A DNA stretch of 58,916 bases. It comes from a virus. Lineage: Duplodnaviria > Caudoviricetes. Below the pieces are notes generated by a model. The model was not told the DNA's origin. It worked only from the letters and a program-made list of their open reading frames with translations, and did no database searches. Positions 15,931 through 58,916 of the stretch are shown piece after piece. The number at the start of each line of letters is the position of its first letter. The first letter of the stretch is position 1. The position numbers and the translations under genes are program-made. The stretch covers positions 1 through 58,916 of the IMG/VR virus record IMGVR_UViG_3300031227_000045. One strand, written 5' to 3'.

Positions 15931-18900
15931 TTAAGCATTATATGTTGGATTTACCCTTAGTTCAGTAGTAAGTGGGTCTATCCATCCCTTTATCTGATTA
16001 TTAACAACCTCTTCCATCTGTGCTTTAAGACCTCCCTCTAAACCACCTAAACCATTAACATTAACATCAAAGGTATGTCTACATACCATTTCAATCTTGT
16101 CAGGTGTTTGTATACTAGCACCTTGACCTGATTCAGGCCCACCTCTTGCAGCATCTAAGAAATCTTTCTCAAATTGTGCCTGTGGCGTCAAAGGAGGTGG
16201 TGCTTGCTGTAAACCAGGTGGAGCAATTGGGTTTTGAGGCAATATATTTTGTTGAGATGGTCTGCTCACAGGAATATTAGAACCCATCATAACAGCATTT
16301 TGTTCAGCTAATCTTTGTTCAACCTTCTCTAAAACATTAGGTAATCTGTCTAGTTTAAATAATGCCTCAGCTAACTGTGTTTGTGACCTTACTAAATTTC
16401 TAGCTTCATCTTGTTTAATACGAGCAGCATCAACTCCTAAATCCATACCTATACGTCCAGCTTCAGTGCCACCCCATCCCTGAGCGTTTAATCGTTCTTT
16501 TCTTGCTTGTTCAGCAGGATTTTCTCTAATACGAGCTTTTACGTGCTCTGGTAAAGGTCTATCTCTTAAATATTCTTCAACCCCTGCTGGACCACTACCC
16601 AATAATTGAAAATTTCTTTGGGCACCAGCTTGAGCAGCAGTACTCATATTATTACGAGGTATACCCAATCTACTAGCATATCCTGCTGTAGTTGCCATAG
16701 CTTTAAAACTACCAATGACATTATTGATTTCATTTTCTCTACCCGGATGTACCGTACTTGCCATAGGTCTTATTTCTTCCATTCCTTTGACAGCTTGAGC
16801 TTGCTGTTTTTCACTCATACCCTTACCACCAGTTTGTATAAATTTACCAATCAGATTTATCTTTTGTTGAAATTTAGCCCTATCTTTAAAACCGCCAGAC
16901 ATTAAATCTAACATACTCTTATTACCCTCATCTCTTCTCTTGTTTATTTGGGCAATTTCTGACTGTATTGTTGATAACCGTACAGTATCTTTAGACAGGG
17001 TATCCAAGGCCATTCTGTTAGCTTGTAATTGGAAATTTACTCCAGCAAGCTCTCTAATCATTATAGCTTCTTCTTTCCACTTACCTTGTTCTGCAAAATA
17101 CTTACCTGCTGCTGTAAGATTAGTCTTTCTACCCTCTAGGCTTTGCATTTTTCGTTCAATTTCTTGCTGATTTGTAGTTCCACCAGCAATACCACCGGAT
17201 TTTGTTAGCCCTCTCATGCGAGCTACAAAAGGTTCAAGTTGCTGAGTGCTAGAAAGAACTATACCAAATGATTTAGATAATTGATTTTGTTTAGTTATAC
17301 CATCACTTTGTATAGCTGCCATCTTAGCGCGTTGTTTAAGCTCTCGTGTAGCTTCTACTGCATAATCAGTTATAAACTTTTCACGCATACCCATTTCTAC
17401 ATCAACATTCTTAGCTAACATATCCTGGGCAGCCTGTTTGGCCGGTGCTACGACCTTTGACAAATTACCCTGATTAAATATATCCTTAAAATCTACATTA
17501 CCCTTATTAGAGTTTACTTGTTTTTTAATATTGGTAATAACAATATCTAAAATTTCTTTTGGTACACTACCACTAAAGTTGTTAGTAATAGCTTCAATAA
17601 CTAAACCCTCTGGATTTTCACCTGCCAACGGTGGACCTCCTGCCTCTATTTTCGCTAATACTTCACCAATAATTTTTTCAAGACCATCTTGTAATCTTTT
17701 ACCACCCTGAGCAATCTCTACGGCTTGGCTCGTACTACCTCCAGGACCACCCATTCTAGTAATTAAACGTTGTGATGCATCATCATATTGACCAGGAGTA
17801 AAAGCTCGTGGATTAGCAAAAACATTTTGTTGACCCGCTGCGAAATTTCTTACACCCACACCCCCACTACGTTGAGCATTCATTAATCTGATATCTTCTG
17901 TTGCACCACCACCAGCGGCGGCTGCTCTATCCATAATAGCAGACATAGTTTCAAAACGAGTAACAAGTGCATCTAAAACTTTGATATTGGCTTGCATTGC
18001 TGTATCTAGTTTCTTACGTAAGGCTGTTTCCTCCAAAATCTTCCCCATATTTTTTTCACCCTCACCTCTCAAGAATCGACCCAATTTAGTCAACTTACCC
18101 AACTCATCTGTTATTTCCCAAGTACCAAAATCTTTAACAGCTTTAGCAATATTGGCTGTCTTTAGACCTAATGCAGCCAAGGCTTTATCCTTTTTTAACC
18201 CTTCTTCTCCTAGGGTAGTCTCGCCACGTAAACTAAGTGCTTTTTCAACAGCTCCAGTTGAACCAGCTAAATTTTGTTTCAGATTTTCCAGACGAAGTGC
18301 ATTACCAGCATCTTTCCTATTTCTAACATTAGTCTGCAAATCTGCTGCGGCATTTTTTCCCATTGTATTAAAATCTAATCCAGTACCACCAAATTTAGTG
18401 ACAATTTTTTTTGCACCTCTGAACATATCCCCTATATAAGTCAAACCCATTTTATCAGGAAGTGTTTCTGGACTTAACGCAGTAGTTACTACCGCTTGAC
18501 CATAAGTAAATCTATCAATATCTTCTGTACCCTCACCTATCTTTTTACCAAACATCGAACCATACGAAGTCTGACTAGCTTCTGAAACAGCCTTTTCTTG
18601 GGTCTGAATAACCTTACCTAAACCACCAAATGAAGTTTGTAATTCCTCTATACTACCTGTTGCTAAAAGTTTTTCAAAAGCCGCGTTTAATGCCTTCGTA
18701 GTTCTTGCTAATATCATTTCTGCTTTAGATGTAGCCCTAGCAGTTCTAGCTCCTTTAATACCTGTTGCCGCTCCCATAATACCACCGGCTACAGCCCCCA
18801 TTGGACCCAAACCTAACATAGATGCCATACCACCAGTACCAATACCACCACCAAAAGCTTGTGTGATTGAACTTTCTCCCTTTGGGTCAAACTGTGAAGC

Positions 18901-31216: not shown

Positions 31217-33352
31217 TTACCTAGATGGTAAGGTCCATGTAGTATTTCTTGTTAGTAAGGTCCATGTTAAACCAGGTATAGTAGAATTGAATCCATACAT
31301 CCAGTCTAATAGTAATATACACGAAATGGCTAGGTTTAGATGGTTATCAAAGGGAATAGTATCGCTTTGAGAAATATCCGCCAGCCAACTTAAATTAAAT
31401 GTATCCGTAGCACTAATAGATGTATAAGCTGCCCCACCCCATCCCAATAATAAATCTTGATTAATGCCCAATTTTGCTAAGTATGCTAAGTTGACCACTT
31501 TTTCACTGCTCAAATTAGTACGCCAATCATAGTTAATAATGTCATTTGTAGATAATTCGCTTCTTAATGAGATTGGAATGATGCTCGTCGGGGATAAACC
31601 ACGTAACCATGATAATGGTACAGTGGTAGAACTTGGGATTAAGTTTAGTATCCAAGACAGTGGCATAGTATTAGAAGTGGCTAAACTACCTCTCCAATCC
31701 AATGGAACAATACTTTCAACATCTAGATTATTTTTCCACCCTAGCAATAAGATGTCTAAAGCACTTACTGAAATGTTGGTTGCTTGCCATCCCAATGTAA
31801 ATATATTTGATAAGGCCAAACTTTGTAACCATGATAACGATGTTATATTTGATAATGCTAAACCCTGTAACCACGATATGGGTATCTCACCAGATAATAC
31901 CAAAGCCCCCAAATATGATAATGGTGTTATGTTTTCTCTGCTCAAATTAGTACGCCAACCATAATTGACAATATCATTTGTAGATAATTCACCCCTTAGT
32001 GAGATTGGAATGATGCTCGTTGGGGATAAGCCGTGTAACCATGATAGTGGTAATTGATGAGAACCAGATATTCCACCTAACCAAGACGATGGTAATTCAG
32101 AAGATGTAGCTAATTGGGTTAACCATTCTAAAGTTAATATACTTGAGGCAGTTATAGGTGTAGTGCTACCATCACCCTTCCAGCCTAAGTTCAGAATATC
32201 TAAAGAAGAAATTCCTTGTAACCAATCTGGATTAGTTATTGTACCACTAGAGATTTTTTGTAACCATTCTAAGTTTAGTATTTGAGACCTGAGTAGGTTT
32301 AGTCTCCAGTCTAAGTTTAAGATACTAGGTAAAGATAAACCTGTTAACCACGATGATGGTAATGTACTAGAATTAGATATATTTTGTAACCATGACAAAG
32401 CTAATATTTTAGATGTTACTAGGTTTAACCTCCAGTCTAGGTCTAAAATATTTGATGGAGATAAATTAACTAATGAATCAATGTTAATAATACTAGATTG
32501 TGACAAACCTTGCAACCACGTTAATGCTAGTATTTGAGATTTGACTAAATTAAGCCTCCAGTCTAAGTTTAAAGCACTTGATAAAGACAAATTAACCTGT
32601 GGGTCAATATCAATAATATCAGATTTAGATAGACCTTGTAACCATGACAAAGCTAATATTTTAGACGTTGCTAATTTTAATCTCCAATCTAAATCAACAA
32701 CATCAGATTTAGACAAACCTTGTAACCATTCTAAAGGTAACAATTGAGATTTAACAAGATTTAATTGCCAGTCTTCATTTAAGATATTATCTAATGATAA
32801 TTGGGTCTTCCAAGAAACATTTATAATAACCCCAGGTGATATGGTAGAATTCCAATCTACATTCATAACACCTAAGTTGGCTATTACTCCACACCATGAA
32901 ATTGGTATTGTACTACTTTGAGCAGCAGTGTACGCAGCAAAAGTTATAAAATCACGCTTGCGTCTTGGATAACTTTCTTTTAGAATTGTGCGAGGATATA
33001 TTCTACCCAGTCTATGGTAACCCATAGCACCGGTAACACTACACTGTCTGTTTTTTTTACCCGATATTACAATAACAGTAGCGGTGCCGGTCAGGCCACT
33101 CGGCACCGCCCCCACGGTAGCCGTGCCGGCATAGGTGACTGGGGCATATTCGCCAGTTATGCCGTCAGCACGAGCCCAGCACAAGCCAACCGTGCCTTTT
33201 ACAACGCTGATGTACCAGCCTCCGAAAATTGAGAAAATCCAGTACGCCCCATCTCCCCGCTCGTATGCCGTCTTGCCGTTGTACGTGCCGTTCGCAGTAT
33301 AGGTACCCGTGGCGTCGGGGTCTAGGGTTCCGGTGACGCGATAGGCAGACAC
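31217..33352 (-). CDS. repeat-containing fibre/appendage protein with a GC-rich foreign N-terminal domain
   Basis: About 14-aa periodic LxW..L/S..IL repeats over most of the protein; the first ~90 codons are GC-rich. Confidence 0.6.
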   Translation of the reverse strand: MSAYRVTGTLDPDATGTYTANGTYNGKTAYERGDGAYWIFSIFGGWYISVVKGTVGLCWARADGITGEYAPVTYAGTATVGAVPSGLTGTATVIVISGKKNRQCSVTGAMGYHRLGRIYPRTILKESYPRRKRDFITFAAYTAAQSSTIPISWCGVIANLGVMNVDWNSTISPGVIINVSWKTQLSLDNILNEDWQLNLVKSQLLPLEWLQGLSKSDVVDLDWRLKLATSKILALSWLQGLSKSDIIDIDPQVNLSLSSALNLDWRLNLVKSQILALTWLQGLSQSSIINIDSLVNLSPSNILDLDWRLNLVTSKILALSWLQNISNSSTLPSSWLTGLSLPSILNLDWRLNLLRSQILNLEWLQKISSGTITNPDWLQGISSLDILNLGWKGDGSTTPITASSILTLEWLTQLATSSELPSSWLGGISGSHQLPLSWLHGLSPTSIIPISLRGELSTNDIVNYGWRTNLSRENITPLSYLGALVLSGEIPISWLQGLALSNITSLSWLQSLALSNIFTLGWQATNISVSALDILLLGWKNNLDVESIVPLDWRGSLATSNTMPLSWILNLIPSSTTVPLSWLRGLSPTSIIPISLRSELSTNDIINYDWRTNLSSEKVVNLAYLAKLGINQDLLLGWGGAAYTSISATDTFNLSWLADISQSDTIPFDNHLNLAISCILLLDWMYGFNSTIPGLTWTLLTRNTTWTLPSR
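31509..32052. repeat. internal direct duplication of ~112 bp (31509-31620 and 31941-32052)
   Basis: Both copies begin CTCAAATTAGTACGCCAA and share GAGATTGGAATGATGCTCGT; offset 432 bp = 144 codons. Confidence 0.85.
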
Positions 33353-33816: not shown

Positions 33817-34983
33817 TTATCTCCGATATATTGATTTACGTCTTTTTTGAAAAATAGCAATCAGGTAGGCAGGAGCCACCGCCGCCACCGTGTACGTCGC
33901 GTAGATCGACCAGAGATTGGTACTATCGGCACTCCAACCCCATCCGGGGAAGGTACTGGGAAACGAGTAGCCGCAGGGGTATGTCGCTGTTGCGGACCGC
34001 CCCCACTTCCGTGAGGCTCCGCCCGTGTCATAGCCAATCCCGATCGCAGGCCATTCGTGGTTGAATCCCAGGTAATGCGTGCCCGGGCTAAATGCACCAC
34101 CGCTCTCGATGTTCTGTGTCCACAAACTTACGTAATTGATAATTACTTCCCACTCGTTAGATTGCCCCTTGAGAGCATCTGGCGTGGTAGAGGTACCATC
34201 ATAGCAGCAGAAACGTCCCGCGATTGTTGAATCACTGTCTCGGCCCATGTAGGCGGACAAACTGGTTATCGTTCCACCTACGCCAACATCACCGATGCAA
34301 AACAGCCAGACATAATTTCTTGTCAGGTTGCCATATTTGGACGCACCATGCGACGTGTACCCGAACGTCGGATCGACGACGACCGGGTACGCCGACTTGG
34401 CCAGCGTCTTGAGCCACTTAACTAGCCCCGGCACCACGACCAGCCGCCCAAAGTGCCCGTGCTGCTGAACCTGGAGCCTAAACCACTTCACCTCGCCGGC
34501 TGCCGTCTCGGCCCTGGCCGCCGGGATGTGCCCGATCTTGCAGCCCGTCCCGTCGAATACGGCGTAGCTGCCAACACACCAATCGGGGCGGACGCAGCCC
34601 TTGGCGACCTCCTCCGCGGTCAAGGCCGGCTGATAGTGAAGTTGGCAGCCGGCCGGCAGTTCCAGTTGTGAGCGGTACTGGCCGAACTTCGGTACGCCGT
34701 CGAAAATCACCGTCTCTTTGAACCCGCCGCCCTCGGACGGGAAGCCGGGATAAAGCTTTTCGATGTCGGTCGCGTGCTCCCATTGCAAGAGCGTCTTGGT
34801 GTCCAGGGCGAACTCCCGACCACGGTCCAGCGGCCGATTGTGCGTCAAGCTGCCGTCGACGAACCGCTTCGTAACCGGCACACCCCAGCAATCCAACAGT
34901 GCCGTAGGTGTAGAGGCGATGCGGTCGATGGTCCGCGTGGACCACCGTTTCGACTCCCATCGTGCTGTCGTGCAAAACGCCAT
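33817..34983 (-). CDS. GC-rich two-domain protein, putative receptor-binding/appendage
   Basis: YPVVVDPTFGY domain junction; aromatic-rich C-domain; AT-rich hydrophobic+basic tail AYLIAIFQKRRKSIYRR. Confidence 0.55.
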   Translation of the reverse strand: MAFCTTARWESKRWSTRTIDRIASTPTALLDCWGVPVTKRFVDGSLTHNRPLDRGREFALDTKTLLQWEHATDIEKLYPGFPSEGGGFKETVIFDGVPKFGQYRSQLELPAGCQLHYQPALTAEEVAKGCVRPDWCVGSYAVFDGTGCKIGHIPAARAETAAGEVKWFRLQVQQHGHFGRLVVVPGLVKWLKTLAKSAYPVVVDPTFGYTSHGASKYGNLTRNYVWLFCIGDVGVGGTITSLSAYMGRDSDSTIAGRFCCYDGTSTTPDALKGQSNEWEVIINYVSLWTQNIESGGAFSPGTHYLGFNHEWPAIGIGYDTGGASRKWGRSATATYPCGYSFPSTFPGWGWSADSTNLWSIYATYTVAAVAPAYLIAIFQKRRKSIYRR

Positions 34984-35165
34984 TAGGCTGCCATTGGGTC
35001 TTTGAAAAACGGGCCGCCGCCGCCGAGGCCGTTGAGGCTGCCGCTTTGGCGGAAGAGTCCGCCTGCCACCGGCCCCGCCACCTTCGGCGTCAGCGCGTCG
35101 AGCTTGTCCACGAGGGCATCGGCATCTTTGAGCCTCGCCCGCTCTTGTGTCAGGTCTCTTGGCAT
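34983..35165 (-). CDS. small GC-rich hypothetical protein
   Basis: SD-like AAGGATAGGG upstream; TAATG coupling to the next gene. Confidence 0.55.
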   Translation of the reverse strand: MPRDLTQERARLKDADALVDKLDALTPKVAGPVAGGLFRQSGSLNGLGGGGPFFKDPMAA

Positions 35166-35169
35166 TTCC

Positions 35170-35268
35170 CTATCCTTTCATTGCTGCGAATACCACGCGG
35201 GTGTTGTACATCCGCACCTGTTTTTCGTCGACAGTCGGCTCGATGATGGTTTGAATTTGATTTGCCAT
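35170..35268 (-). CDS. 32-aa ORF MANQIQTIIEPTVDEKQVRMYNTRVVFAAMKG (not in the supplied track)
   Basis: AAGGA SD; its TAG lies 4 nt before the next ATG; spans the AT-to-GC junction. Confidence 0.5.
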   Translation of the reverse strand: MANQIQTIIEPTVDEKQVRMYNTRVVFAAMKG

Positions 35269-35330
35269 AAGAATTTCCTTGTATTAAAAAAAACATTATT
35301 GAGAATGTGGGATATATTTGTTAACATACT

Positions 35331-35340
35331 ATAATACACT
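35331..35340 (-). promoter_or_regulatory. candidate late promoter AGTGTATTAT
   Basis: Intergenic motif copy upstream of the appendage/neck genes. Confidence 0.45.
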
Positions 35341-35376
35341 AAATTAAAGTTTTTCTACTCTAAGTCAATAGTGGTC

Positions 35377-36975
35377 CTATACCTCAAAGCAATATTTCGC
35401 CTGTCCGCAATCCCAAATCTTAACTAGACCCTTATCGTAACCAGTATTACTGGGAAATTTACTTCTGTGAAATACCTCATATTGTCCATTTGTCCACTTA
35501 AAACTAGGATGTTCTCCAACATACTTAAAACCCAAGTTGGTAAGATATGACCCATTTCCATACCTTAAGTCTATAAAAGTTGTTATAGATGTAGGCTTTA
35601 ACTGTCCCACAGCATATTTTAGCAACCTAGAAAATCCTCCACGCACACTACAATTTAATAGTGGGCAAAAGCGAGAAATCTCATATGTAGAATCTTCAAC
35701 ACAACACACCCTCATCAAACATACGATTTCATCATTAAGTATTAATGCGTAGGATGTACCCCTACCATTACCCATTAAATGATTCTTCTGTAAGAAATCC
35801 TTAGAAGTAGTCTTGTCCACCGTTTGAATTTTACATTCTCTAGCGTTTAACTTGCGCGCACCACCAAACTTATTAGATATGATAGACTTTACAATATCAA
35901 ATTTATTATTGATTTCATCCTCTCTGAAAAATAGCGGAGTATATTCATTTTTAATATAAAGTTTGCGTTTGTTAACATGATAATTGTTATCTTTCACTAC
36001 TGCATCTGAATGCCAATAAAGACCATCACACTCTATGATTAAGTTATGAGAGGGAATAAAGAAGTCTGCAATTTTTCCTTCTACACGAAATTGTTTTTGA
36101 TATGGGATAGATAAGGTGTTGAACCATTCTCGCATAGTTACCTCTAAAGAACTTTCTTGTGGAGTTAATGTAATAGCTTTTTCTATACCATATTTAACTA
36201 CCAAAGTATAAAAATGAGAGCGCGAAAACCCAACCTGCTCAGCAATAGTAGGATATGTTTGGTCTTTATATAGTTTGACATCTCCGTTTGCAATTCTTGT
36301 TAAAAGCCCTTTATGCACTGCATCCTTAGCAACATTAGATATCTTCATATGATGAGTAACTCCACGCTTTTGAATATGGGTTGCGCGGATTTTGGCCTTT
36401 ATCCCTTCATCCTGAAAGGCGTTATCTACGCCAAATTTAGTTTGACACCCATCTTTCATAAGCTCTTTTCCTGCATCACTTTGAGAAGCATAAGCAGTAC
36501 CAAATCGCTCTTTACAAGTCTCCATTCTTTTTTGTTTAACATCTTCTAAGAGAGAGGGGTTATCTACGCCATATTTATCAATAAATACTTGTTTTTGATG
36601 TTCCTTTACATCGTCGTTTTGTATAGCATGTTCACAACCATATTTTTTTAGATTGGTTTGTTTAACTTGCTCTTTAAATTCATCTGATTGGAGACGGTCT
36701 ATATTAGCATCTCTAATCTTATCTTTTACATCCTTTAACTGAGATACATTTTTCACTCCGTACTTAGCCATATTTACATCCGACATCTTTTCATAGCGAC
36801 AAGCTTTACAAGAATCCTTATCAACCAGGACATTTGATTTAGTTCGTCGTTTTGGAGTCGTGTCATAAATCCTATCACAATAATCACACTGAACTTTAAC
36901 CTTTTTATTTGAGCCACTACTTAAGCTTGCAGGATAATAACTATAGGTCTCTAAAGTTTGTTGTACTAATAACAT
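35377..36975 (-). CDS. Hef-like/Vsr-type homing endonuclease with KYGV repeats
   Basis: Repeated K(Y/F)GVDN units; SSLE..ADFFIP..IECDGLYWH; C-terminal GGFSRLLKY, DLRYGNG, WDCGQ. Confidence 0.8.
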   Translation of the reverse strand: MLLVQQTLETYSYYPASLSSGSNKKVKVQCDYCDRIYDTTPKRRTKSNVLVDKDSCKACRYEKMSDVNMAKYGVKNVSQLKDVKDKIRDANIDRLQSDEFKEQVKQTNLKKYGCEHAIQNDDVKEHQKQVFIDKYGVDNPSLLEDVKQKRMETCKERFGTAYASQSDAGKELMKDGCQTKFGVDNAFQDEGIKAKIRATHIQKRGVTHHMKISNVAKDAVHKGLLTRIANGDVKLYKDQTYPTIAEQVGFSRSHFYTLVVKYGIEKAITLTPQESSLEVTMREWFNTLSIPYQKQFRVEGKIADFFIPSHNLIIECDGLYWHSDAVVKDNNYHVNKRKLYIKNEYTPLFFREDEINNKFDIVKSIISNKFGGARKLNARECKIQTVDKTTSKDFLQKNHLMGNGRGTSYALILNDEIVCLMRVCCVEDSTYEISRFCPLLNCSVRGGFSRLLKYAVGQLKPTSITTFIDLRYGNGSYLTNLGFKYVGEHPSFKWTNGQYEVFHRSKFPSNTGYDKGLVKIWDCGQAKYCFEV

Positions 36976-40266: not shown

Positions 40267-40668
40267 TTAAGATTTACTTGGTAAAAGCGCCTTGGCTAGA
40301 CTCTCAGAAAGCTCTTGTTGCTTTGCCGGGTCATTAGACACCTCACGAAAACCACCTAGATTTTCTACAATTTGCGAAGCCACAGCTTTCACTTGTTCAT
40401 CCCATACTTCACCATCTTTTGAAGCCATAGTACGAATAACTGTAACAGTATCATCTTTTTCATTACGGGTCACTTGAGAAACCTCAAGAGAAAATTTACC
40501 ATCATCATCCCACTTGGGATATACATAAATACCAGATACATCTTCTAAGACAGTTGCACCCATCTTAACCGACATAGTCTTTTCGGTGGTATCATAATTA
40601 ATTGTTATTTTCATATTCATCTCCTGATAAGTGTATACAAACACTTGTCTGAACTTTTCTAAGTTCAT
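40267..40668 (-). CDS. hypothetical protein (likely start at MNMKITINY after AGGAG)
   Basis: Between portal and protease genes; AGGAG SD near 40620. Confidence 0.6.
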   Translation of the reverse strand: MNLEKFRQVFVYTYQEMNMKITINYDTTEKTMSVKMGATVLEDVSGIYVYPKWDDDGKFSLEVSQVTRNEKDDTVTVIRTMASKDGEVWDEQVKAVASQIVENLGGFREVSNDPAKQQELSESLAKALLPSKS

Positions 40669-42769
40669 CTAAGGTTAGTTTTCTGTCCATTTGACTAGCT
40701 ATCTCACCTGACCACTCCTTACACAAAGCAACTGCCTGTTGGCTTACAGGTAATTGTAGAGCAGCAGAAATAGTAGTCTCGCTTACTTCACTCAATGGTT
40801 CAATATTACATAAAACACCAAATTTAACATTTTCAGCCATTCCCAACTGCTTGGCGGTTAGACTGCGCATATTCTTTTTTTGGTAATGCTCAATAAAGCC
40901 TTCATTCAATACCTCTGAAATTGCTGATTGCGCAAAATCTGCCCAAATCTCCATTACAGCTTTAGACTTAGGGGTAAATGTCTTCTTCTTGCGCGGCGTA
41001 GAGTCTTTCTTATTCTTGGGGCGACCCTGTCCAGGGGCACCTTTCTTCTTAGTCGTGGTAGTACCACCTGGCGGCACCTTCATTTTTAGTGCTGGTTGTT
41101 CGCCGGATGGCTTGGGGTCTAACTTTAAACCTACTTGACCTGGAGTAACAGCGCCGGTTTGTAAAGCAACTTTCTTGAGTGCCAACATAAACTGAGGGTC
41201 ATAGAATGCGCCAGCTTTAGGAGGCAAGGAACCATTCTCACGACCTCTATGTTCTCTTCTAATTCTAATGTTTTCCATTTCTTCATCATGTCCAAAGTAA
41301 CGTTGAAACAACTCGTCAGAAATTAGATTGCGGTCTACCATTTGAATTAACAATGCTTTTTCGGCAGCCTCATCACCTAGAGAGGTCCAAGTAAATTCTA
41401 ACCTAGCCGGAAAACGAAAACCCATAGCTTCTTGAACTAATTTGAATTCGTTATTCCAGAACTCTTCTAATACTTCACGACCATACTCTAGGCGCTGTAC
41501 TAAGGTTTTGATAGAAATAAAGTTGTTGGTTGTGCCAGCAGCGCCAAATGTACCAGTAAGAGTTGGGGGAATACCTAGACCAGCATAGATATTATTAAGA
41601 GTAGGCTTGTACTTGTCTTCACCTAAGAATTGATGGACGGTAGTTTTACTTTCTACTAATTCAATATCTGGACCCCATATTAGGTCCATAGTACCAGCAC
41701 CCATATGGTTTTCAAGAATCTCACCTAGGCGAGCAGCAGCAGTTCTAGTAGGGGCAATTTTATGTTCCAAACTACCTAACTTGAAAATACGAATGTTAGA
41801 TATTGCACCATCTAAAGCTGCCGTATCAGCCAACTTGAGTTTCTGTAAAAGGTTAATATCTTCCATGATAGAATAAATCATGGGATTAGCCCAAGTTTGC
41901 CAGTCATCTTTTTTGTAATGATAAACGATGGTTTTATCTGGTGGTAATAAAACAGGTTTATTAGTTCGAGCGGCCTCTTTGATTTCAGGTGGTAATTCTT
42001 TAACTAATTCTATTTCTTCTGGTGTTTGAGGATTGGTAATCATCCTACGTAAATGAGCTGGTATAATTAAAGAATATAAACTTTTACCAACAAAAGAAGA
42101 TAGTTCCTTACCAACTACATCTATTGTAATAGGATTGAGGAATGTATACCTCCAAGGAATTTCTCTTTTATGAACTACATCTTTGACCATCTTAGTATCA
42201 GGTTTAGCCTGAGCCTTCTTGGTCATTTCTGTTTGGTCTTTAACGCTAATACGCGCAGTTTGCTTACGTATTACAACATTTCCTAAGCGATACAAATGAT
42301 TCAAAAATCTTTCTGAACGTTCTTTCCCATGTACCTTCTTCCACCAACTACGCATAAAGCGTTGGATTTTAGGATTAGGATGAACAACACGTACTCCTTG
42401 GCAGGCAAAATCTCCCATTAAATCAATAATATTCTTTATTAAACCGACCTTTTGATATGACCTATCAGACATGAACATAATAGCTTTATGGTCACCAATC
42501 TGAGGAATAGCCTCATTGGGTCTAAAAGCATCATAACCATCACGACCTAGTCCTGGTCTACTAGATACATTAGTAGCTAAATCAGAATAGTCTTGTCCGT
42601 ATGGGGCACTATAATAACCGTTGTATGAACCAACCGCTTTACCCATTTCGACAAAAGCCTTATCTCGTTGAACAGCACTACCAGCCCACGAAATAAACAT
42701 AGGACCATCATCATGGGATGCTTCTGGCACCCCTTTGATTTCAGCAGCACTTCTACGTCTCTTAGCCAT
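40598..42769 (-). CDS. portal protein
   Basis: Follows terminase; IIDLM.DF..G, YRLGNV, L..IYAGLGIP..L.G; basic/Pro-rich C-terminal extension; start moved to MAKRRR. Confidence 0.8.
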   Translation of the reverse strand: MAKRRRSAAEIKGVPEASHDDGPMFISWAGSAVQRDKAFVEMGKAVGSYNGYYSAPYGQDYSDLATNVSSRPGLGRDGYDAFRPNEAIPQIGDHKAIMFMSDRSYQKVGLIKNIIDLMGDFACQGVRVVHPNPKIQRFMRSWWKKVHGKERSERFLNHLYRLGNVVIRKQTARISVKDQTEMTKKAQAKPDTKMVKDVVHKREIPWRYTFLNPITIDVVGKELSSFVGKSLYSLIIPAHLRRMITNPQTPEEIELVKELPPEIKEAARTNKPVLLPPDKTIVYHYKKDDWQTWANPMIYSIMEDINLLQKLKLADTAALDGAISNIRIFKLGSLEHKIAPTRTAAARLGEILENHMGAGTMDLIWGPDIELVESKTTVHQFLGEDKYKPTLNNIYAGLGIPPTLTGTFGAAGTTNNFISIKTLVQRLEYGREVLEEFWNNEFKLVQEAMGFRFPARLEFTWTSLGDEAAEKALLIQMVDRNLISDELFQRYFGHDEEMENIRIRREHRGRENGSLPPKAGAFYDPQFMLALKKVALQTGAVTPGQVGLKLDPKPSGEQPALKMKVPPGGTTTTKKKGAPGQGRPKNKKDSTPRKKKTFTPKSKAVMEIWADFAQSAISEVLNEGFIEHYQKKNMRSLTAKQLGMAENVKFGVLCNIEPLSEVSETTISAALQLPVSQQAVALCKEWSGEIASQMDRKLTLDELRKVQTSVCIHLSGDEYENNN

Positions 42770-42838
42770 AATAAAGTATACCTTTGTTATAATAGAATTC
42801 AGTATAACTACAATACTATTGTAATAGCATTGTGTAAT

Positions 42839-42848
42839 ACTATACACC
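42839..42848 (-). promoter_or_regulatory. candidate late promoter GGTGTATAGT
   Basis: Motif copy just past the terminase stop, upstream of the portal gene. Confidence 0.55.
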
Positions 42849-42853
42849 AACCG

Positions 42854-53888: not shown

Positions 53889-54303
53889 ACACCAACACGC
53901 CAATACAACGATTTGCGGGCCTATAGCCTTGGCTAACCTACAGATATGGGAGGGAGGCACCACCTATACCTTGAAACAACTCAAGCAAATGTGTCATTGT
54001 ACTAATGGGAGGGGCTCTCCTATGATTTGGTTTGCAAGGAGTCTTTGTGAGATGGGTAGTACATACGGGTGGCAAATAGAGGCCGTGAATCGTTTAGAAT
54101 TGGTTGTGGCGCAAGATACAATAATGGTCGGGCATTTTCGCAATGAAGAATTTCCGCGCGGGCATTATATGTTAATCACAGGTGGTCACGGTAGTGTTTT
54201 TTGCTGCATAAATTGGAGGAGGAGAGTAGAGCATGTGGCTTTGGAGGAGCTGTTGAAACTAAACATTTCGAAGACGTGGATTGTGAGGAAAGGTGTTAAA
54301 TAA
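53881..54303 (+). CDS. papain-fold (C39-like) cysteine peptidase
   Basis: Q....CGPIALAN, GHYMLI, and a downstream Asn (INW) giving a Cys-His-Asn triad pattern. Confidence 0.6.
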   Translation: MYKHQHANTTICGPIALANLQIWEGGTTYTLKQLKQMCHCTNGRGSPMIWFARSLCEMGSTYGWQIEAVNRLELVVAQDTIMVGHFRNEEFPRGHYMLITGGHGSVFCCINWRRRVEHVALEELLKLNISKTWIVRKGVK

Positions 54304-54374
54304 AAGTGACTGTTTGTTAATATGGTGTATTTGATAAAGGTGGTATATTTCACATTTTTGAATGAGGCGTAGAT

Positions 54375-55790
54375 ATGGGAAGACCAGCAGGTTCTTTAGA
54401 TAAGAAAAGACGTAAAACTAAAACACAATGGACTACTAGTGAAGTAGAGTTGCTTAAACAAAACTTATGTGATTTAACAATAGTAGAATTAGCAATATTA
54501 TTACATAAGTCTAAAAGTTCCATACGTAATAAATTAAAACAATTAAGGCTAATTAAACCTAACATTTTAAAAACATGTACTTTAGATAAATCTATAGAAT
54601 GGTCTTTTGCTGGTGTTTATGGTTTATTAAACATTAAAACTAATTGTATCTATATAGGTAGTAGTGCGAATATTGCTAATAGAATACAAAATCATTTAAG
54701 TCGCTTAAGGGTTGATTCACATTGTACTAAAAAACTACAATCTAATTGGAATAAATCAGATTTTGTAGTTGCGTTATTATTTGTGTGTGATAAATACAAA
54801 ACTGAGTTATATGAACAAAGATTTACAAGGTCGTGGCCTGAAGACAAATTGTATAATTCTCCCCCGATACAACATACTAAATTACGTTTACTACCACTAG
54901 AGAGACAAAAGATATTAGATTTAATAGATAAAAAAGGGGACGATGAATGTTGGAATTGGAAAGGGCCATTAGATAGTAATGGCAAATATGGCAGAATAAG
55001 GTTTGACAATAAGCAGTATACGCCTCATCGCCTGGCAGTGTTTTTAGATGGACGAGACCCATTTGGTTATGCAGTTTGTCATTTATGTAATAACCCATTA
55101 TGTTGTAACCCCAAACATTTGCAACTAGGAACCGCTATAATTAATAATGGGCATAAACCCCACCCTTTGGATATCTATAAAGATGAAATGATTAAATTAT
55201 ACAATAGTGGTATGACTTACAATAGTCTAGGTAAAAAATACAATAGAGACGGTGTAAGTATTAAAAGGTATTTACAACAACATGTTACATTAAGGCCCGC
55301 ACAACGCAAGAGGACATATGTAGCCTTTGGAGAGTATAAATCTTTATCCGAGTGGGTTTTAGATAACAGGTGTATTATTACACTATTTAGACTAAAACAA
55401 AGAGTCAAAACAACAAACTTAAATGATAATAATATTGAAAAAATTATTACAACCCCATTCATAAGAAAAACCCCGTTTTCTACAAAAACATTTGAAGCTT
55501 TTGGAGAACAAAAAACAGTGCGAGAATGGCTATTAGATAAAAGATGTGTAGCATCAGAATCAACCCTAAAGGTTAGGTTATTTACTATTGGTTATGATGT
55601 AGAAAAAGCTTTAACAATCCCATCTAAACCTGTATTTAAAATATCTCAATTAGAATATCCTAAGATTATTGAAGCGGCTGCAAAAGGTGAAACATACAAA
55701 ACTATTGCCGAAAGATACAATGTTTCTATAACAACGATTAGACTCATTTGTGTCTATAGATATTCATCGGATGTGTATACATTGCCGTAA
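54375..55790 (+). CDS. multidomain endonuclease: HTH + GIY-YIG + HNH + DNA-binding repeats
   Basis: GVYGLLN....IYIGSS..R..H; CWNWKG..YGRI..HRL..VCHLCNNPLCCNPKHL; AFGE.K...EW..D.RC twice. Confidence 0.85.
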   Translation: MGRPAGSLDKKRRKTKTQWTTSEVELLKQNLCDLTIVELAILLHKSKSSIRNKLKQLRLIKPNILKTCTLDKSIEWSFAGVYGLLNIKTNCIYIGSSANIANRIQNHLSRLRVDSHCTKKLQSNWNKSDFVVALLFVCDKYKTELYEQRFTRSWPEDKLYNSPPIQHTKLRLLPLERQKILDLIDKKGDDECWNWKGPLDSNGKYGRIRFDNKQYTPHRLAVFLDGRDPFGYAVCHLCNNPLCCNPKHLQLGTAIINNGHKPHPLDIYKDEMIKLYNSGMTYNSLGKKYNRDGVSIKRYLQQHVTLRPAQRKRTYVAFGEYKSLSEWVLDNRCIITLFRLKQRVKTTNLNDNNIEKIITTPFIRKTPFSTKTFEAFGEQKTVREWLLDKRCVASESTLKVRLFTIGYDVEKALTIPSKPVFKISQLEYPKIIEAAAKGETYKTIAERYNVSITTIRLICVYRYSSDVYTLP

Positions 55791-55920
55791 AAGTGGCCAT
55801 TTCAATAAATAGGTGGGGGTATTTATGATAAATGAGGCTCACCACTTAGCCTGAACCCCTGCCAGAAATCTTACCTAAAGTACCTACCCTTTTTACATTG
55901 AAAAAACCCCCTGGGTTCAT

Positions 55921-55964
55921 CGGGTACAGCGAGTGTGCTTCGGGTACAGCGAGTGTGCTTCGGG
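55921..55964. repeat. 20-bp tandem repeat (CGGGTACAGCGAGTGTGCTT) x2.2
   Basis: Exact copies; flanked by inverted GGGTTC (55913) and GAACCC (55965). Confidence 0.9.
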
Positions 55965-56210
55965 GAACCCCTTGACAATCCCCTCAATCTACTGTATGTC
56001 AACCATGCAAACCGGCACCGATTATCCCCCTCGAATAGAAAATAAAGTATTTTCAATCGACGTAACCTATTGCTATCAAAGGGATTACATCGGGGGGTGT
56101 GGCCCAATTCACAATGGGTACAATGGGGTATTTTTCGACGTAAATTGTTGGTGTGTAACTACTTAAGTATTACCCCACCTTTGGTGGTAAACTGTAGGGT
56201 AGAGGGACAC

Positions 56211-56351
56211 ATGAAACACAAACAACAACGCCCCGACGGTAGCAAACGGCCCCGACGTAACGGGGAACGGGGTATTGCAAGGCAAAGCTATTATGCAAAG
56301 TATCGGGCAAAAAGGTTTGCGGCCCGATTCTTCCCTTCTGAAAAGGAGTAG
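56211..56351 (+). CDS. 46-aa highly basic peptide
   Basis: AGAGGGA SD; candidate extended -10 TGGTAAACT at 56185-56193; its end contains the SD of the next gene. Confidence 0.55.
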   Translation: MKHKQQRPDGSKRPRRNGERGIARQSYYAKYRAKRFAARFFPSEKE

Positions 56352-56356
56352 CGACA

Positions 56357-56626
56357 ATGGGAGCCCTGCCACTTAGCTTGAAACGTTTCGAGGGAGCGAC
56401 GCCGGGTTGTATCGCGTTCAGCCATAGGGACAAGAACGGCACCGTTACCTACCACAGTTGGAGTCTGAACCATGAGGGGGCCAGGGTATACCTCCGGCGT
56501 GGGGTGCTGGTCGTCAAGGGATACGACTACAATGCCCCCGCCCGCTACGGGTGTGGTTTGGGCGATTGGAGAACCCTTGAGCTAGCCCGCATGTTCACCC
56601 GACATTCTGACATAGTGGTCGGATGA
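56357..56626 (+). CDS. hypothetical protein (89 aa)
   Basis: AAGGAG SD. Confidence 0.65.
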   Translation: MGALPLSLKRFEGATPGCIAFSHRDKNGTVTYHSWSLNHEGARVYLRRGVLVVKGYDYNAPARYGCGLGDWRTLELARMFTRHSDIVVG

Positions 56627-56634
56627 TAACCAGG

Positions 56635-56695
56635 GGCTCCCCTCGCAAGAGGGGAGTCGCCGCCTGCCCCCTCGCTGGAGGGGGTGGGTGGCGGC
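56635..56695 (+). other. intergenic double-hairpin element, copy 1
   Basis: GGCTCCCCTC-GCAA-GAGGGGAGTC immediately followed by GCCGCCTGCCCCCTC-GCTG-GAGGGGGTGGGTGGCGGC. Confidence 0.8.
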
Positions 56696-56726
56696 TAACT
56701 ACAATCCTCTTTTTTGGAGAGTCGGA

Positions 56727-56939
56727 ATGCATTACAGCCCCTATGAGACAAGTTTGTTTATCGCCATGTTGGACCAAGCACCCATTCGCGTCAACGGATT
56801 CACCCCAGCGAGGGACTGGATTCGTATTATGGCAGTCGTCTTAAAGCTGGAAGTTAAAAAGGACGGCCTTGGTGAGTTAATTGCCACAGTCGAGGACAAC
56901 AAGGGTTGTGTTCTGGTTGTCGAAATAGCCGATGGTTAA
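56727..56939 (+). CDS. hypothetical protein (70 aa)
   Basis: GGAG SD before ATG 56727. Confidence 0.6.
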   Translation: MHYSPYETSLFIAMLDQAPIRVNGFTPARDWIRIMAVVLKLEVKKDGLGELIATVEDNKGCVLVVEIADG

Positions 56940-56948
56940 CCAGCACCA

Positions 56949-57009
56949 GGCTCCCCTTCGTAAGAGGGGGAGTCGCCGCCTGCCCCCTGCTAAGGGGGTA
57001 GACGGCGGC
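56949..57009 (+). other. intergenic double-hairpin element, copy 2
   Basis: GGCTCCCCTTC-GTAA-GAGGGGGAGTC followed by GCCGCCTGCCCCCT-GCTA-AGGGGGTAGACGGCGGC. Confidence 0.8.
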
Positions 57010-57041
57010 TGAAACCCTTACTTTTACTTGGAGTGGTTACC

Positions 57042-57236
57042 ATGCAAACAATGAATCTCAGCTTGCAAGTGGTTACAAGAGACGGAGAAACGGTCGTCAA
57101 GGCTAGAGTCGGACGTGGTATGTCAGTCATGGAAAAAGACTTCTCGATTGTGGAGTGGAAAAGTCTGGCTAGTGACATTGCACAAGAGATTAGAGAGATT
57201 GAATTGGCACAATGGGCGGAGTGTTTCTGCCCCTAG
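57042..57236 (+). CDS. hypothetical protein (64 aa)
   Basis: GGAG SD before ATG 57042; followed by a terminator. Confidence 0.6.
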   Translation: MQTMNLSLQVVTRDGETVVKARVGRGMSVMEKDFSIVEWKSLASDIAQEIREIELAQWAECFCP

Positions 57237-57245
57237 GGTAGCGTA

Positions 57246-57283
57246 CCCTCCCCCTCACTTGAGGGGGAGGGCCTTTTGCTTTT
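57246..57283 (+). terminator. intrinsic terminator
   Basis: CCCTCCCCCTC-ACTT-GAGGGGGAGGG then CCTTTTGCTTTT. Confidence 0.8.
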
Positions 57284-57765
57284 GGTATTCATCGTAAGTT
57301 GTTATTACATAAGGACTTACAACTCGTACTGCGTGACGTGACTTAACCTCTTGCTATCAAAGGCTTTACGTCGAATCGTCCTTAAGTGGGGGTTACATAG
57401 AGGGGTGAGTATCCCAGAGTACCCAGCTTATCTATACTACTCAAACAGCACACCTTGCCCAGTTGTCCCAGCTTAACTAGCTTCGTCCGCCGGGGGGTAT
57501 GTGCCCCTGCTAGCGAAGTACCTCTAATTATTTTTTGGAATCCCCATAGGTGGCAACCCCCTCTGAGGTAGTACAAATGGTAAGATGGGTAAGCTGCGCT
57601 AGATAGGTATGTTACTATGGGGTGTTTGGGTACATTAGGTTGACCTACCCCCCCGTACCGGAAACGGAAGTGTCCTTTACACCCGTTTGGGGGGGTGACG
57701 TGACGTAACCCCTTATGGCATAACGACTTACGACTACCCCTCCTATGGGTGGCATAGGCTAACCC

Positions 57766-57792
57766 TTGACTACCCCTGTATAATACTATAGA
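57766..57792 (+). promoter_or_regulatory. possible promoter for the second small-gene operon
   Basis: TTGACT and TATAAT/TACTAT hexamers are present, but spacing is non-canonical. Confidence 0.35.
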
Positions 57793-57866
57793 GGGGTTCG
57801 GGGGAGGCAGGGGGGTGAGTAAACCCCCCACCCGAACTACGGCACCCCACTAGAGGAGTACTCATT

Positions 57867-58208
57867 ATGGCGGAAACCCAGACCTGGAAGAGTGGGCAAG
57901 CTACGCAAGATACGCAAGCTCCGCGGTTCTGCGGCACTGCGTCGATTAGTCAAGCCATAGAATGTGGCGGGTATGGGAAAACCTGGGGGTTTTGGTACTT
58001 TGGGAAGAAAGACCAAGCCCCGCGATATAGGTGGGCTACGGTCCACCCCCCGACTGGGGACAAGCCCACCCTCGTGAGTGGTAGTCACTTCGTGGGGTAC
58101 GACCCCCACGCGAAAGATAGGAAGACTGGGGCGATTGGGGGGTTTAGGTTCTTCTACTTCGGAAAGATGGACGACCTTAGTCCTGTGGAGGGGTACTTCA
58201 CCCCCTAG
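57867..58208 (+). CDS. hypothetical protein (113 aa) with internal GFWYFGK/GFRFFYFGK repeat
   Basis: GAGGAG SD; structured leader at 57796-57837. Confidence 0.65.
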   Translation: MAETQTWKSGQATQDTQAPRFCGTASISQAIECGGYGKTWGFWYFGKKDQAPRYRWATVHPPTGDKPTLVSGSHFVGYDPHAKDRKTGAIGGFRFFYFGKMDDLSPVEGYFTP

Positions 58209-58226
58209 ACTGAGTAGTCCAAGTGG

Positions 58227-58285
58227 GGTGCCCCTCGCAAGAGGGGTGCCTCTCCCTGCCCCCCAGAGTAAGGGGTCAAAGAGAG
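58227..58285 (+). other. intergenic double-hairpin element, diverged copy 3
   Basis: GGTGCCCCTC-GCAA-GAGGGGTGCC followed by CTCTC..CCCC-AGAGTAA-GGGG..GAGAG. Confidence 0.65.
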
Positions 58286-58316
58286 TCAACAACACCCCCA
58301 CAAGAGGAGCATACAG

Positions 58317-58688
58317 ATGTTCAGCAACTCCGAGTTCGCCCAAATTACCGGCATCCCCCAAGATGCCATGGGTGCCCTGCCCCCCTTGGGTGCCCACCTT
58401 TGCAGGGAGCTGTCATTTGCCGAGTTTGCCCTATTTACCATCCCGGTGGTTGAGGTAAACGGGGCAACCCACGACCTCTGGGCTGTTAAGCGACAGTCGG
58501 CAACCCGCATGGGCCTGGATGCTCGCGGGGAAGAGGCAAGCTGGGCAAAAGAGGAAGAACGGAGAAGGAAGGAAAACCTTGCACACTACATCGAGTTGGC
58601 TGAAAAGGGGTTCTGCGACGGTGAGGAAGTCGAGGAACTTGAGGTAAGCCTGACCGACTGTGCCCTTCATAGGAAAGGGGAAGGTTAG
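58317..58688 (+). CDS. hypothetical protein (123 aa)
   Basis: GAGGAG SD; followed by a terminator. Confidence 0.65.
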   Translation: MFSNSEFAQITGIPQDAMGALPPLGAHLCRELSFAEFALFTIPVVEVNGATHDLWAVKRQSATRMGLDARGEEASWAKEEERRRKENLAHYIELAEKGFCDGEEVEELEVSLTDCALHRKGEG

Positions 58689-58704
58689 GCTAGTTGGGTA
58701 AGTC

Positions 58705-58728
58705 GCCCCCCGAAAGGGGGGCTTTTTT
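58705..58728 (+). terminator. intrinsic terminator
   Basis: GCCCCCC-GAAA-GGGGGGC-TTTTTT. Confidence 0.9.
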
Positions 58729-58810
58729 ATGTAGTCATCCTATTTGTCCCAGCTTAACTTGCTTCTTCCACCGGGGGGTGCGCCACCCTGCCAGCGAACT
58801 AGGGTGAGCA

Positions 58811-58883
58811 CACTTAGTGAAAATACACTAGGTGTGTTAGCACTACCGTAGTGTAGTAACACTTAGTGCGTTAGCACCTTGAG
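58811..58883. repeat. periodic CAC..GTG mini-palindromes
   Basis: CACTTAGTG (58811), CACTAGGTG (58826), CACTACCGTAGTG (58841), CACTTAGTG (58860), CACCTTGAG (58875); spacings 15,15,19,15. Confidence 0.7.
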
Positions 58884-58916
58884 TCGCCATAAGCCCTTTG
58901 ATAGCCTAGACTTAGG

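Follow-up and report, generated by a model that had tools for sequence, protein, structure and literature searches.

Three times in the early genes of an uncultured salt-lake phage, two hairpins stand back to back shortly after a stop codon, some 30 nucleotides (nt) ahead of the next start codon: what are they for? The locus lies at one end of a linear virus contig of IMG/VR, IMGVR_UViG_3300031227_000045, which is 58,916 bp long and is estimated to represent about 39% of its genome; this whole contig is called the window in what follows. The answer that we favour is that the element is a lineage-specific intercistronic module of messenger RNA (mRNA): a processing site, a barrier to exonucleases or a stabiliser of 5' ends. 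We give this answer a probability of about 0.45, and the function is deduced from position alone. The present evidence is limited to one genome, and what it describes is a three-copy repeat of that genome, a lead for experiment and not an established or conserved RNA family.

Anatomy of the double hairpin

The three copies follow one general plan: a stem of 9 to 11 base pairs (bp) with a GYAA loop, hairpin A, directly abuts a bulged stem of 13 to 15 bp, hairpin B, with a linker of 0 nt and a total length of 59 to 61 nt. Stacked on each other, the two hairpins measure about 25 bp. The original prediction, made from the letters of the window, had described a stem of 10 or 11 bp capped by a GNRA loop and abutting a longer bulged stem. 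This description holds: hairpin A has 10, 11 and 9–10 pairs in copies 1, 2 and 3, with loops GCAA, GUAA and GCAA, and hairpin B starts at the next nucleotide, except that in copy 3 the tenth pair of hairpin A shares C58250 with hairpin B. Copy 2 owes its eleven pairs to an extra U.G pair, inserted on both strands. Hairpin B of copy 1 can be drawn either as a 5-bp outer helix, a 3-nt bulge and a 10-bp inner helix, or in a continuous register of 15 bp; that of copy 3 has an outer helix CUCUC/GAGAG, a 2x2 internal loop, a weaker inner helix and an 8-nt loop, CAGAGUAA. The coordinates of all parts are given in Table 1.

The placement of the copies is as regular as their shape. Each was said to follow a stop codon and to precede the next start by about 30 nt, and between the last base of hairpin B and the ATG that follows we measure 31, 32 and 31 nt. 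On the other side, hairpin A begins 8 nt after the stop codon in copy 1 (5 nt past a second in-frame TAA), 9 nt after it in copy 2 and 18 nt after it in copy 3. The gaps between open reading frames (ORFs) that bear an element are 100–108 nt long, while the gap between ORF A and ORF B, of 5 nt, has none. All three copies are on the same strand as the genes, and they occur only inside operons, never at operon ends. A direct-repeat finder places the three copies in one family (D8). Copies 1 and 2 are 78% alike as far as 56719/57033 (56635–56719 against 56949–57033), and the spacer that follows copy 3 has the length of the other two and an unrelated sequence.

The flanks on the 3' side of the elements are UAACUACAAU, UGAAACCCUU and UCAACAACAC, without an adjacent U-tract. 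The absence of a U-tract had been noticed from the start, and a terminator scan of the plus strand indeed leaves the elements unflagged: it flags only 57246–57271 and 58705–58722. Since no U-tract follows the elements, and true terminators close both operons, the element is not a terminator. A TACAAT box is found by eye at copy 1 only, without a -35 element.

A single hairpin also stands ahead of promoter-proximal genes. The leader of operon 2 had been credited with a similar bulged stem and a shared GAGTAA loop: it does fold as a bulged stem, with the loop GUGAGUAAA, to be compared with that of copy 3, and 28 nt separate its end from the ATG of ORF E. A second, independent assembly (L101) shows the operon that comes next, where the corresponding distance is 26 nt. 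From the similar distances between hairpin and ATG at internal and at promoter-proximal genes, it follows that there is a common design: a stable hairpin, about 30 nt that include the Shine-Dalgarno site, then the ATG.

Table 1. Features of the early region, and the portal gene, in window coordinates.
Feature	Positions	Strand	Remarks
Element copy 1	56635–56695	+	between ORF B and ORF C
Copy 1, hairpin A	56635–56658		
Copy 1, hairpin B	56659–56695		
Spacer, copy 1 to ORF C	56696–56726	+	31 nt; Shine-Dalgarno GGAGAG
Element copy 2	56949–57009	+	between ORF C and ORF D
Copy 2, hairpin A	56949–56974		
Copy 2, hairpin B	56975–57009		
Spacer, copy 2 to ORF D	57010–57041	+	32 nt; Shine-Dalgarno GGAGUGG
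Element copy 3	58227–58285	+	between ORF E and ORF F
Copy 3, hairpin A	58227–58250		
Copy 3, hairpin B	58250–58285		
Spacer, copy 3 to ORF F	58286–58316	+	31 nt; Shine-Dalgarno GAGGAG
ORF A	56211–56351	+	46 aa, strongly arginine/lysine-rich; first gene of operon 1
ORF B	56357–56626	+	89 aa; operon 1; no family match
ORF C	56727–56939	+	70 aa; operon 1; no family match
ORF D	57042–57236	+	64 aa; operon 1; no family match
Intrinsic terminator closing operon 1	57246–57282	+	11-bp GC stem, then CCUUUUGCUUUU
TATAAT box ahead of operon 2	57779–57784	+	putative promoter
Operon 2 leader hairpin	57795–57838	+	bulged stem, just downstream of TATAAT
ORF E	57867–58208	+	113 aa; operon 2; no family match
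ORF F	58317–58688	+	123 aa; operon 2
Intrinsic terminator closing operon 2	58705–58729	+	7-bp GC stem, then UUUUUU
Portal protein	40598–42850	-	phrog_2739

Pairing, stability and relatives of the element

The fold of each spacer was compared with those of 200 dinucleotide shuffles. The spacer of copy 1 (104 nt) has a minimum free energy of -60.5 kcal/mol (z = -4.77) and that of copy 2 one of -56.9 kcal/mol (z = -4.94), and in both cases none of the 200 shuffles is as stable; the spacer of copy 3, at -44.4 kcal/mol (z = -3.33), is equalled by one shuffle in 200. In copies 1 and 2 the sense strand is the more stable of the two because of G.U pairs: -55.5 kcal/mol on the plus strand against -42.6 on the minus strand for copy 1, and -49.0 against -40.2 for copy 2.

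A structural alignment of the three copies, placed by coordinates, has 26 paired columns. Half of them (13) are invariant, four change on one side only, through G.U, and one is mismatched, in copy 3. Four columns are present in fewer than three copies, including the extra U.G pair of copy 2, which owes its existence to one base inserted in each strand. The four remaining columns change on both sides and still pair: one in hairpin A, from U-A to G.U, and three in the outer helix of hairpin B, from G-C to C-G, from C-G to U-A and from G-C to U-A. These last three are the exchange of GCCGC/GCGGC for CUCUC/GAGAG on which the original prediction had insisted. It does keep the pairing, with three two-sided changes in five pairs, though in copy 3 this helix is offset by one nucleotide from the invariant CCUGCCCCC core.

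Such a pattern of pairing is the one expected if the plus strand is where the structure is read, be it in RNA or in single-stranded DNA, and very probably the sense strand does adopt the fold. The covariation between copies is suggestive, not significant: the claim of compensatory changes stands in so far as pairing is kept through change, but it has little statistical power, because there are only three copies and two of them are near-identical.

Do the hairpins have a function of their own? A duplicated spacer, copied along with gene insertions, could carry them neutrally, and this would agree with the small number of copies, three within 1.65 kb of a single genome, with the lack of a homologue elsewhere and with the weak statistical support for covariation. 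However, copy 3 has diverged in 8 of the 26 paired columns and lost pairing in only one of them, it keeps its 31-nt spacing despite the unrelated sequence of its spacer, and the two bases that copy 2 gained, one per strand of hairpin A, together make an extra pair. We consider a functionless spacer highly unlikely.

How far does the element extend beyond these three copies? A covariance model built from copy 1, R1, applied to both strands of the window, finds exactly these three copies at E ≤ 2e-4, with scores of 99.4, 56.5 and 31.0 bits. Its weaker matches in the window fall on the terminator stem at 57247 and on the reverse strands of the hairpins already found; the weakest full-length match, on the minus strand at 34565–34627 (E = 0.64), falls in a second GC-rich island and is probably unrelated. 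Rfam 15 has no match in the whole window at gathering score, and in the interval 55,800–58,916 the four weak matches at E ≤ 10 overlap no element. By the Rfam and terminator scans, the element belongs to no described RNA family and is no simple terminator.

Beyond the window, R1 was run on the 50 longest of 81 loci (L004 and 80 relatives found through the portal protein; the 31 on contigs under about 11 kb were left out), and none of the 50 records, among them the complete genomes G001 and G017, has a match at E ≤ 1. Patterns were also used. Two strict ones, in which the top of hairpin A is joined to the CUGCCCCC core, match nothing in viral contigs, neither the one nor the other; in metagenomes a strict pattern returns 12 loci, of which only L101, that is, the same phage, scores with R1. 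A looser pattern returns at least 120 genome loci, scattered across phyla, and 28 viral loci, and the best R1 match among those listed has E = 0.75. As far as these comparisons of sequence reach, the element appears confined to this one phage. The original prediction called it conserved: this applies within the phage only. The lack of further homologues, which the prediction itself had counted as evidence against it, is what we find as far as the 50 records and the pattern scans reach, the latter returning the same phage only.

Some classes of repeats and catalytic RNAs were rejected as identities for the element. For a ribozyme, a clustered regularly interspaced short palindromic repeat, a miniature inverted-repeat transposable element (MITE) or the end of an insertion sequence (IS), there is no Rfam match and there are no conserved unpaired core nucleotides. 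There are by eye no terminal inverted repeats or target duplications either, and no transposase was seen.

Candidate functions and known counterparts

The context of the elements points to mRNA: they are oriented as the genes are, they lie within operons, and they keep a fixed distance to the ATG, even in copy 3 with its unrelated spacer. The scheme that we propose would begin with host RNA polymerase, which would make short polycistronic early transcripts consisting of a promoter, a leader hairpin, small ORFan genes and a U-tract terminator. Between cistrons, the transcript would fold into two abutting, very stable GC hairpins, and this double hairpin would mark a processing point. There are two options for the cut: within the longer bulged stem, by an RNase III-type endonuclease of the host that is specific for double strands, or in the A/U-rich single-stranded stretch immediately 3' of the double hairpin, by an enzyme of the RNase E type. 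The message of the upstream cistron would then end in a hairpin that keeps 3'-5' exonucleases out, and that of the downstream cistron would open with a defined leader of about 30 nt, comparable to the 5' leader hairpins that stand 26–28 nt before promoter-proximal genes. For internal cistrons, cutting at or beside the double hairpin is the simplest route to the common design of hairpin and leader. We infer the cleavage, the stabilisation and the identity of the nuclease, as we do the early transcripts and their polycistronic nature.

Phage T7 offers a precedent for such a scheme. According to PMC4858673, host RNase III cuts the early polycistronic precursor of T7 at five intercistronic sites, which gives mature mono- and dicistronic mRNAs, and processing leaves these mRNAs with a hairpin at the 3' end. 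Like the elements, the T7 sites (R0.3 to R1.3, for example R1.1) are intercistronic hairpins of an early transcript made by host polymerase, and they are not terminators. The intercistronic position has its counterpart here, between the ORFs of two presumed transcription units that are bounded by leader or promoter-like sequences and by U-tract terminators. Hairpin B, of 13–15 bp, has a 3-nt bulge or a 2x2 internal loop. Each T7 site, however, is one hairpin of about 60 nt that includes an internal loop, whereas the element is made of two abutting shorter hairpins with near-perfect GC stems. The element is best filed with a known kind, the structured intercistronic punctuation of phage early operons.

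Several observations weigh against this proposal. RNase III substrates typically extend over about two helical turns, and the stems here, of 9–11 and 13–15 bp, are shorter. No phage RNase III (PF14622) is found in the three records searched, the window and the complete relatives G001 and G017, so any RNase III would be the host's. Copy 3 does not share the bias towards the sense strand: its stability is -32.7 kcal/mol on the plus strand and -34.1 on the minus strand. When the purine-rich 3' half of copy 3 was shuffled and a 5-mer pairing with CUCUC was sought within 3 nt of the right place, 2049 of 20000 shuffles provided one if G.U pairs counted, and 870 of 20000 if Watson-Crick pairs alone did, which makes this test of the outer helix a weak one. 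The sample is three copies, of which copies 1 and 2 are close duplicates. The 23 salt-lake sequencing runs that hold the stretch are all of DNA, none of RNA. Searched by structure only for strong hairpins that abut each other, G001 and G017 gave unrelated singletons and no recurrent family, with a filter that is insensitive, as it missed copy 3. Finally, no homologue outside this phage was found in the viral, metagenome and genome pattern scans or in the R1 search.

The arrangement of the elements can also be seen from the point of view of DNA. The promoter early stem-loops (PeSLs) of T4-type phages, as described in PMC2839356 and PMC4122927, combine a sigma-70 early promoter with a terminating stem-loop of G and C runs; like the element, they form a repeated module of about 100 bp from stop to start, with G/C-run stems and a 3' Shine-Dalgarno site, that flanks ORFans in plastic early regions. 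On this model the elements would be junction cassettes, about 100 bp of DNA homology from stop to start through which recombination deletes, duplicates or swaps small early genes, and the fold would be a by-product or secondary. Several features of the locus speak for it. The C-run and G-run stems with a Shine-Dalgarno site on their 3' side are as those papers describe, the elements separate unrelated ORFans in an early region of odd composition, and copies 1 and 2 resemble each other over almost all of the spacer, as far as its Shine-Dalgarno site. ORF F, the only gene with a relative, has a different upstream junction, a promoter, in G001. But the promoter is the defining half of a PeSL, and a scan of the plus strand at 55700–58916 found no sigma-70 promoter in or next to the elements, and indeed no promoter-like site at all in that interval. 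The pairing-preserving G.U and two-sided changes, with the bias towards the sense strand, point to selection on the fold and not on homology only, and contigs of four further runs (X15, X19, X20 and X21), compared with 55500–58916, are identical wherever they cover the region, which they do in 8 to 25 of 30 bins. No close relative was found for a comparison of breakpoints: the best portal is 56% identical, and the relative of ORF F 35%. Having two hairpins, no promoter and a place inside operons, where a PeSL has a promoter and a terminator or attenuator stem-loop, the element is not a PeSL in the strict sense. A role of this sort in recombination is compatible with a role as RNA, and we judge it unlikely as the explanation of the elements.

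Hairpins of this strength could act on the polymerase as well. As attenuators or pause sites without a U-tract, they would slow or partly stop transcription, or load Rho, and would create a gradient of expression along the operon. Their extreme stability, reported as -49 to -55 kcal/mol for 61 nt, and their place directly after stop codons lend themselves to this, and the G/C-run stem-loops of PeSLs were shown to attenuate transcription (PMC2839356). Yet no U-tract accompanies the elements, while the operon ends of the same region have canonical U-tract terminators, and the good Shine-Dalgarno sites and fixed spacing that the cistrons downstream have kept suggest that their expression is intended. 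Attenuation seems quite improbable to us.

The opposite effect, processive antitermination, would have the double hairpin act on the polymerase itself, in the manner of the put RNA of phage HK022, or would have the arginine-rich product of ORF A bind hairpin A, in the manner of lambda N and boxB; in both cases early transcription would run on past the terminators at the operon ends. An intrinsic terminator lies downstream of every copy, ORF A is small, rich in arginine and the first gene of operon 1, and the GNRA-like loops of the elements resemble boxB loops. The size and architecture of put also fit: in PMC8632103 it is a double hairpin of about 65 nt, so that put and the element are both double-hairpin RNAs of about 61–65 nt, in an early transcript and upstream of terminators. 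But the putL and putR regions of HK022 give no R1 match: there is none in the cro-cII gap or in the PL-nun leader, and elsewhere in the 8-kb locus the best has E ≥ 5.6. The folds of the cro-cII gap and the PL leader are weak and irregular (z = +0.61 and -0.34), thermodynamically unremarkable and unlike the near-perfect GC stems seen here. The missing R1 match and the dissimilar folds exclude membership in the put family. Sites of the put or nut type normally occur once per operon, near the promoter, whereas these copies recur between cistrons. ORF A has no match in Pfam, PHROG or an Atlas cluster. Read-through is not obviously needed, because the operon beyond the window end has a clear promoter and a TATAAT box precedes operon 2. 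We would be surprised if the elements were antitermination sites, and more surprised still if they were the RNA half of a previously unseen antitermination system, either protein-free, with a fold that differs from put and is far more regular, or made of the ORF A product and hairpin A as its tether, that joins the short early units in a timed cascade of read-through across the terminators at 57246 and 58705. Among the RNA functions listed in the original prediction, processing or stabilisation fits the context best; in sequence the element does not resemble put.

We also modelled a switch for translational coupling: a ribosome that has reached the stop codon would melt hairpin A and thereby expose the next Shine-Dalgarno site. 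It was rejected because constrained folding shows no consistent effect: with the footprint of the ribosome forced to be unpaired, the accessibility of the site goes from 0.25 to 0.29, from 0.20 to 0.12, and from 0.30 to 0.30.

Two families of bacterial repeats share features with the element. The repetitive extragenic palindromic (REP) sequences and bacterial interspersed mosaic elements of enterobacteria are also repeated, stable, transcribed and placed just after stop codons inside operons, and REP elements can protect upstream mRNA from 3' exonucleases. They differ by residing in host chromosomes in hundreds of copies and by their link to REP-associated tyrosine transposases; the element has three copies, in a phage, and no gene of that transposase type was seen. 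The attC sites of integrons are, like the element, imperfect palindromes that separate promoterless, unrelated small genes of the same orientation. They typically carry extrahelical bases, while the stems here are nearly perfect and the genes have their own Shine-Dalgarno sites at a fixed distance. No tyrosine recombinase (PF00589) is found in the window (about 39% of the genome), G001 or G017, with a control that is positive in 14 of 14 genomes. With no integrase found in the window or the two complete relatives, an attC identity was dropped, and the suggested single-stranded recombination signal, taken as integron-like, lacks its enzyme there.

If processing or stabilisation is the true function, the early ORFan genes of a widespread, uncultured lineage are arranged much in the manner of T7, with a comparable RNA punctuation that takes a different fold, a double hairpin at a fixed distance from the start codon; compact insulators of this type would be useful parts for synthetic operons. 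If the elements are recombination junctions, the idea of cassette shuffling developed for PeSLs extends beyond T4-type phages.

The early region and its surroundings

Shine-Dalgarno sites precede all six ORFs, A to F, and ORFs B to F have the coding-type pattern GC1 > GC2 < GC3 over the three codon positions. None of the six has a Pfam or PHROG family, and ORF A has no usable match in the ESM Atlas either. Whether unrelated ORFs lie between the elements had been put forward as a check, and in this phage they do: the proteins beside them are mutually unrelated. ORF E has no relative in viral contigs, and ORF F has only one, in G001, with 35% identity over 100 residues; that relative stands directly behind a promoter of the TTGACA/TAGAAT type, with no double hairpin there. 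Two ORFs that run over the elements on the minus strand (186 and 149 aa) were discarded: they have no Pfam match, no Shine-Dalgarno site and no coding-type GC pattern.

The phage belongs to a lineage that is uncultured and widespread, with genomes of 150–200 kb. In IMG/VR, 367 relatives of its portal protein are found, at about 50% identity and at best 56%, and a tblastn search with it (E ≤ 1e-5) against 50,697 GenBank phage records gave no match. The complete relative G001, of 172,878 bp, has a GC fraction of 0.49 and a portal 45% identical; 14 kb from the portal, in divergent orientation, it has dense small early genes with TTGACA/TATAAT promoters and a tRNA. The gene arrangement of the window is that of G001, with the portal 14–15 kb from divergently oriented early genes.

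Over most of the window the GC fraction is about 0.35–0.41, and the large structural genes there are on the minus strand; in the last 3 kb (56,000–58,916) it is 0.52, and the break between 1–56000 and 56000–58916 is sharp. The GC fraction at third codon positions is 0.49–0.68 in the ORFs of the early region, against 0.21–0.34 in five bulk genes. A chimeric assembly was ruled out as the source of this jump. L101 covers window positions 54,153–58,916 with 2 mismatches in 4,764 nt, and it extends 134 nt past the window end, where it has a consensus promoter, a leader hairpin and a new ATG. Because L101 spans the junction and the gene order matches that of G001, the GC-rich end of the window is the start of the early-gene region. 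The GC fraction is 0.49 all along G001 and 0.34 in G017, which suggests that the early module was exchanged between relatives whose hosts differ in GC content. Immediately before the break lies a protein of 471 aa (54375–55790) with GIY-YIG, His-Me/HNH and helix-turn-helix domains, which looks like a composite homing endonuclease. The second GC-rich island, at 34001–36975 (GC fraction 0.498 in 34–36 kb), is adjoined by a homing endonuclease of 532 aa (phrog_3339, 35377–36975).

The early region is rich in other repeats as well. Operon 1 is followed by about 590 nt of non-coding sequence in which short repeats abound. A hairpin whose arms are CGTAA/TTACG and whose loop is TTG(C/G)TATCAAAGG is found at 56059–56092, at 57340–57373 and, inverted, at 58881–58905. 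It recurs after terminators and is common to the distant relative G001, near 17417; the motif is conserved across the lineage, unlike the double hairpin. The half-site TTACGWCG is concentrated in early regions, with 12 of 23 occurrences within 6–22 kb in G001 and 11 of 13 within 22–34 kb in G017, and the hairpin may be the binding site of a regulator. A repeat of 63 nt, 81% identical between 57458–57520 and 58739–58801, starts with GTCCCAGCTTAAC; its copies are exactly 1281 bp apart, which is also the spacing of the hairpin pair at 56059 and 57340, and its pattern (D9) has no match in viral contigs. A stretch of 35 nt at 57700–57734, of the type GACGTAACC...TTACGAC, is 85% identical to G001 18296–18329. 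It is also present, with 3 differences, on other contigs of three salt-lake runs, between different flanks, and for this reason further copies are to be expected in unsampled parts of this genome or of a related one.

Repeats occur inside genes, too: the minus-strand ORF at 31217–33352 (711 aa) carries tandem repeats in its coding sequence; their periods are 42 and 126 nt, and they form several families of up to 10 copies. In G001, T-arm-like sequences GGTTCGAnTCC (L004 4140–4530 and 5430–5480) flank the single tRNA-Glu called by ARAGORN; they may be tRNA fragments or tRNA-like elements of the early region.

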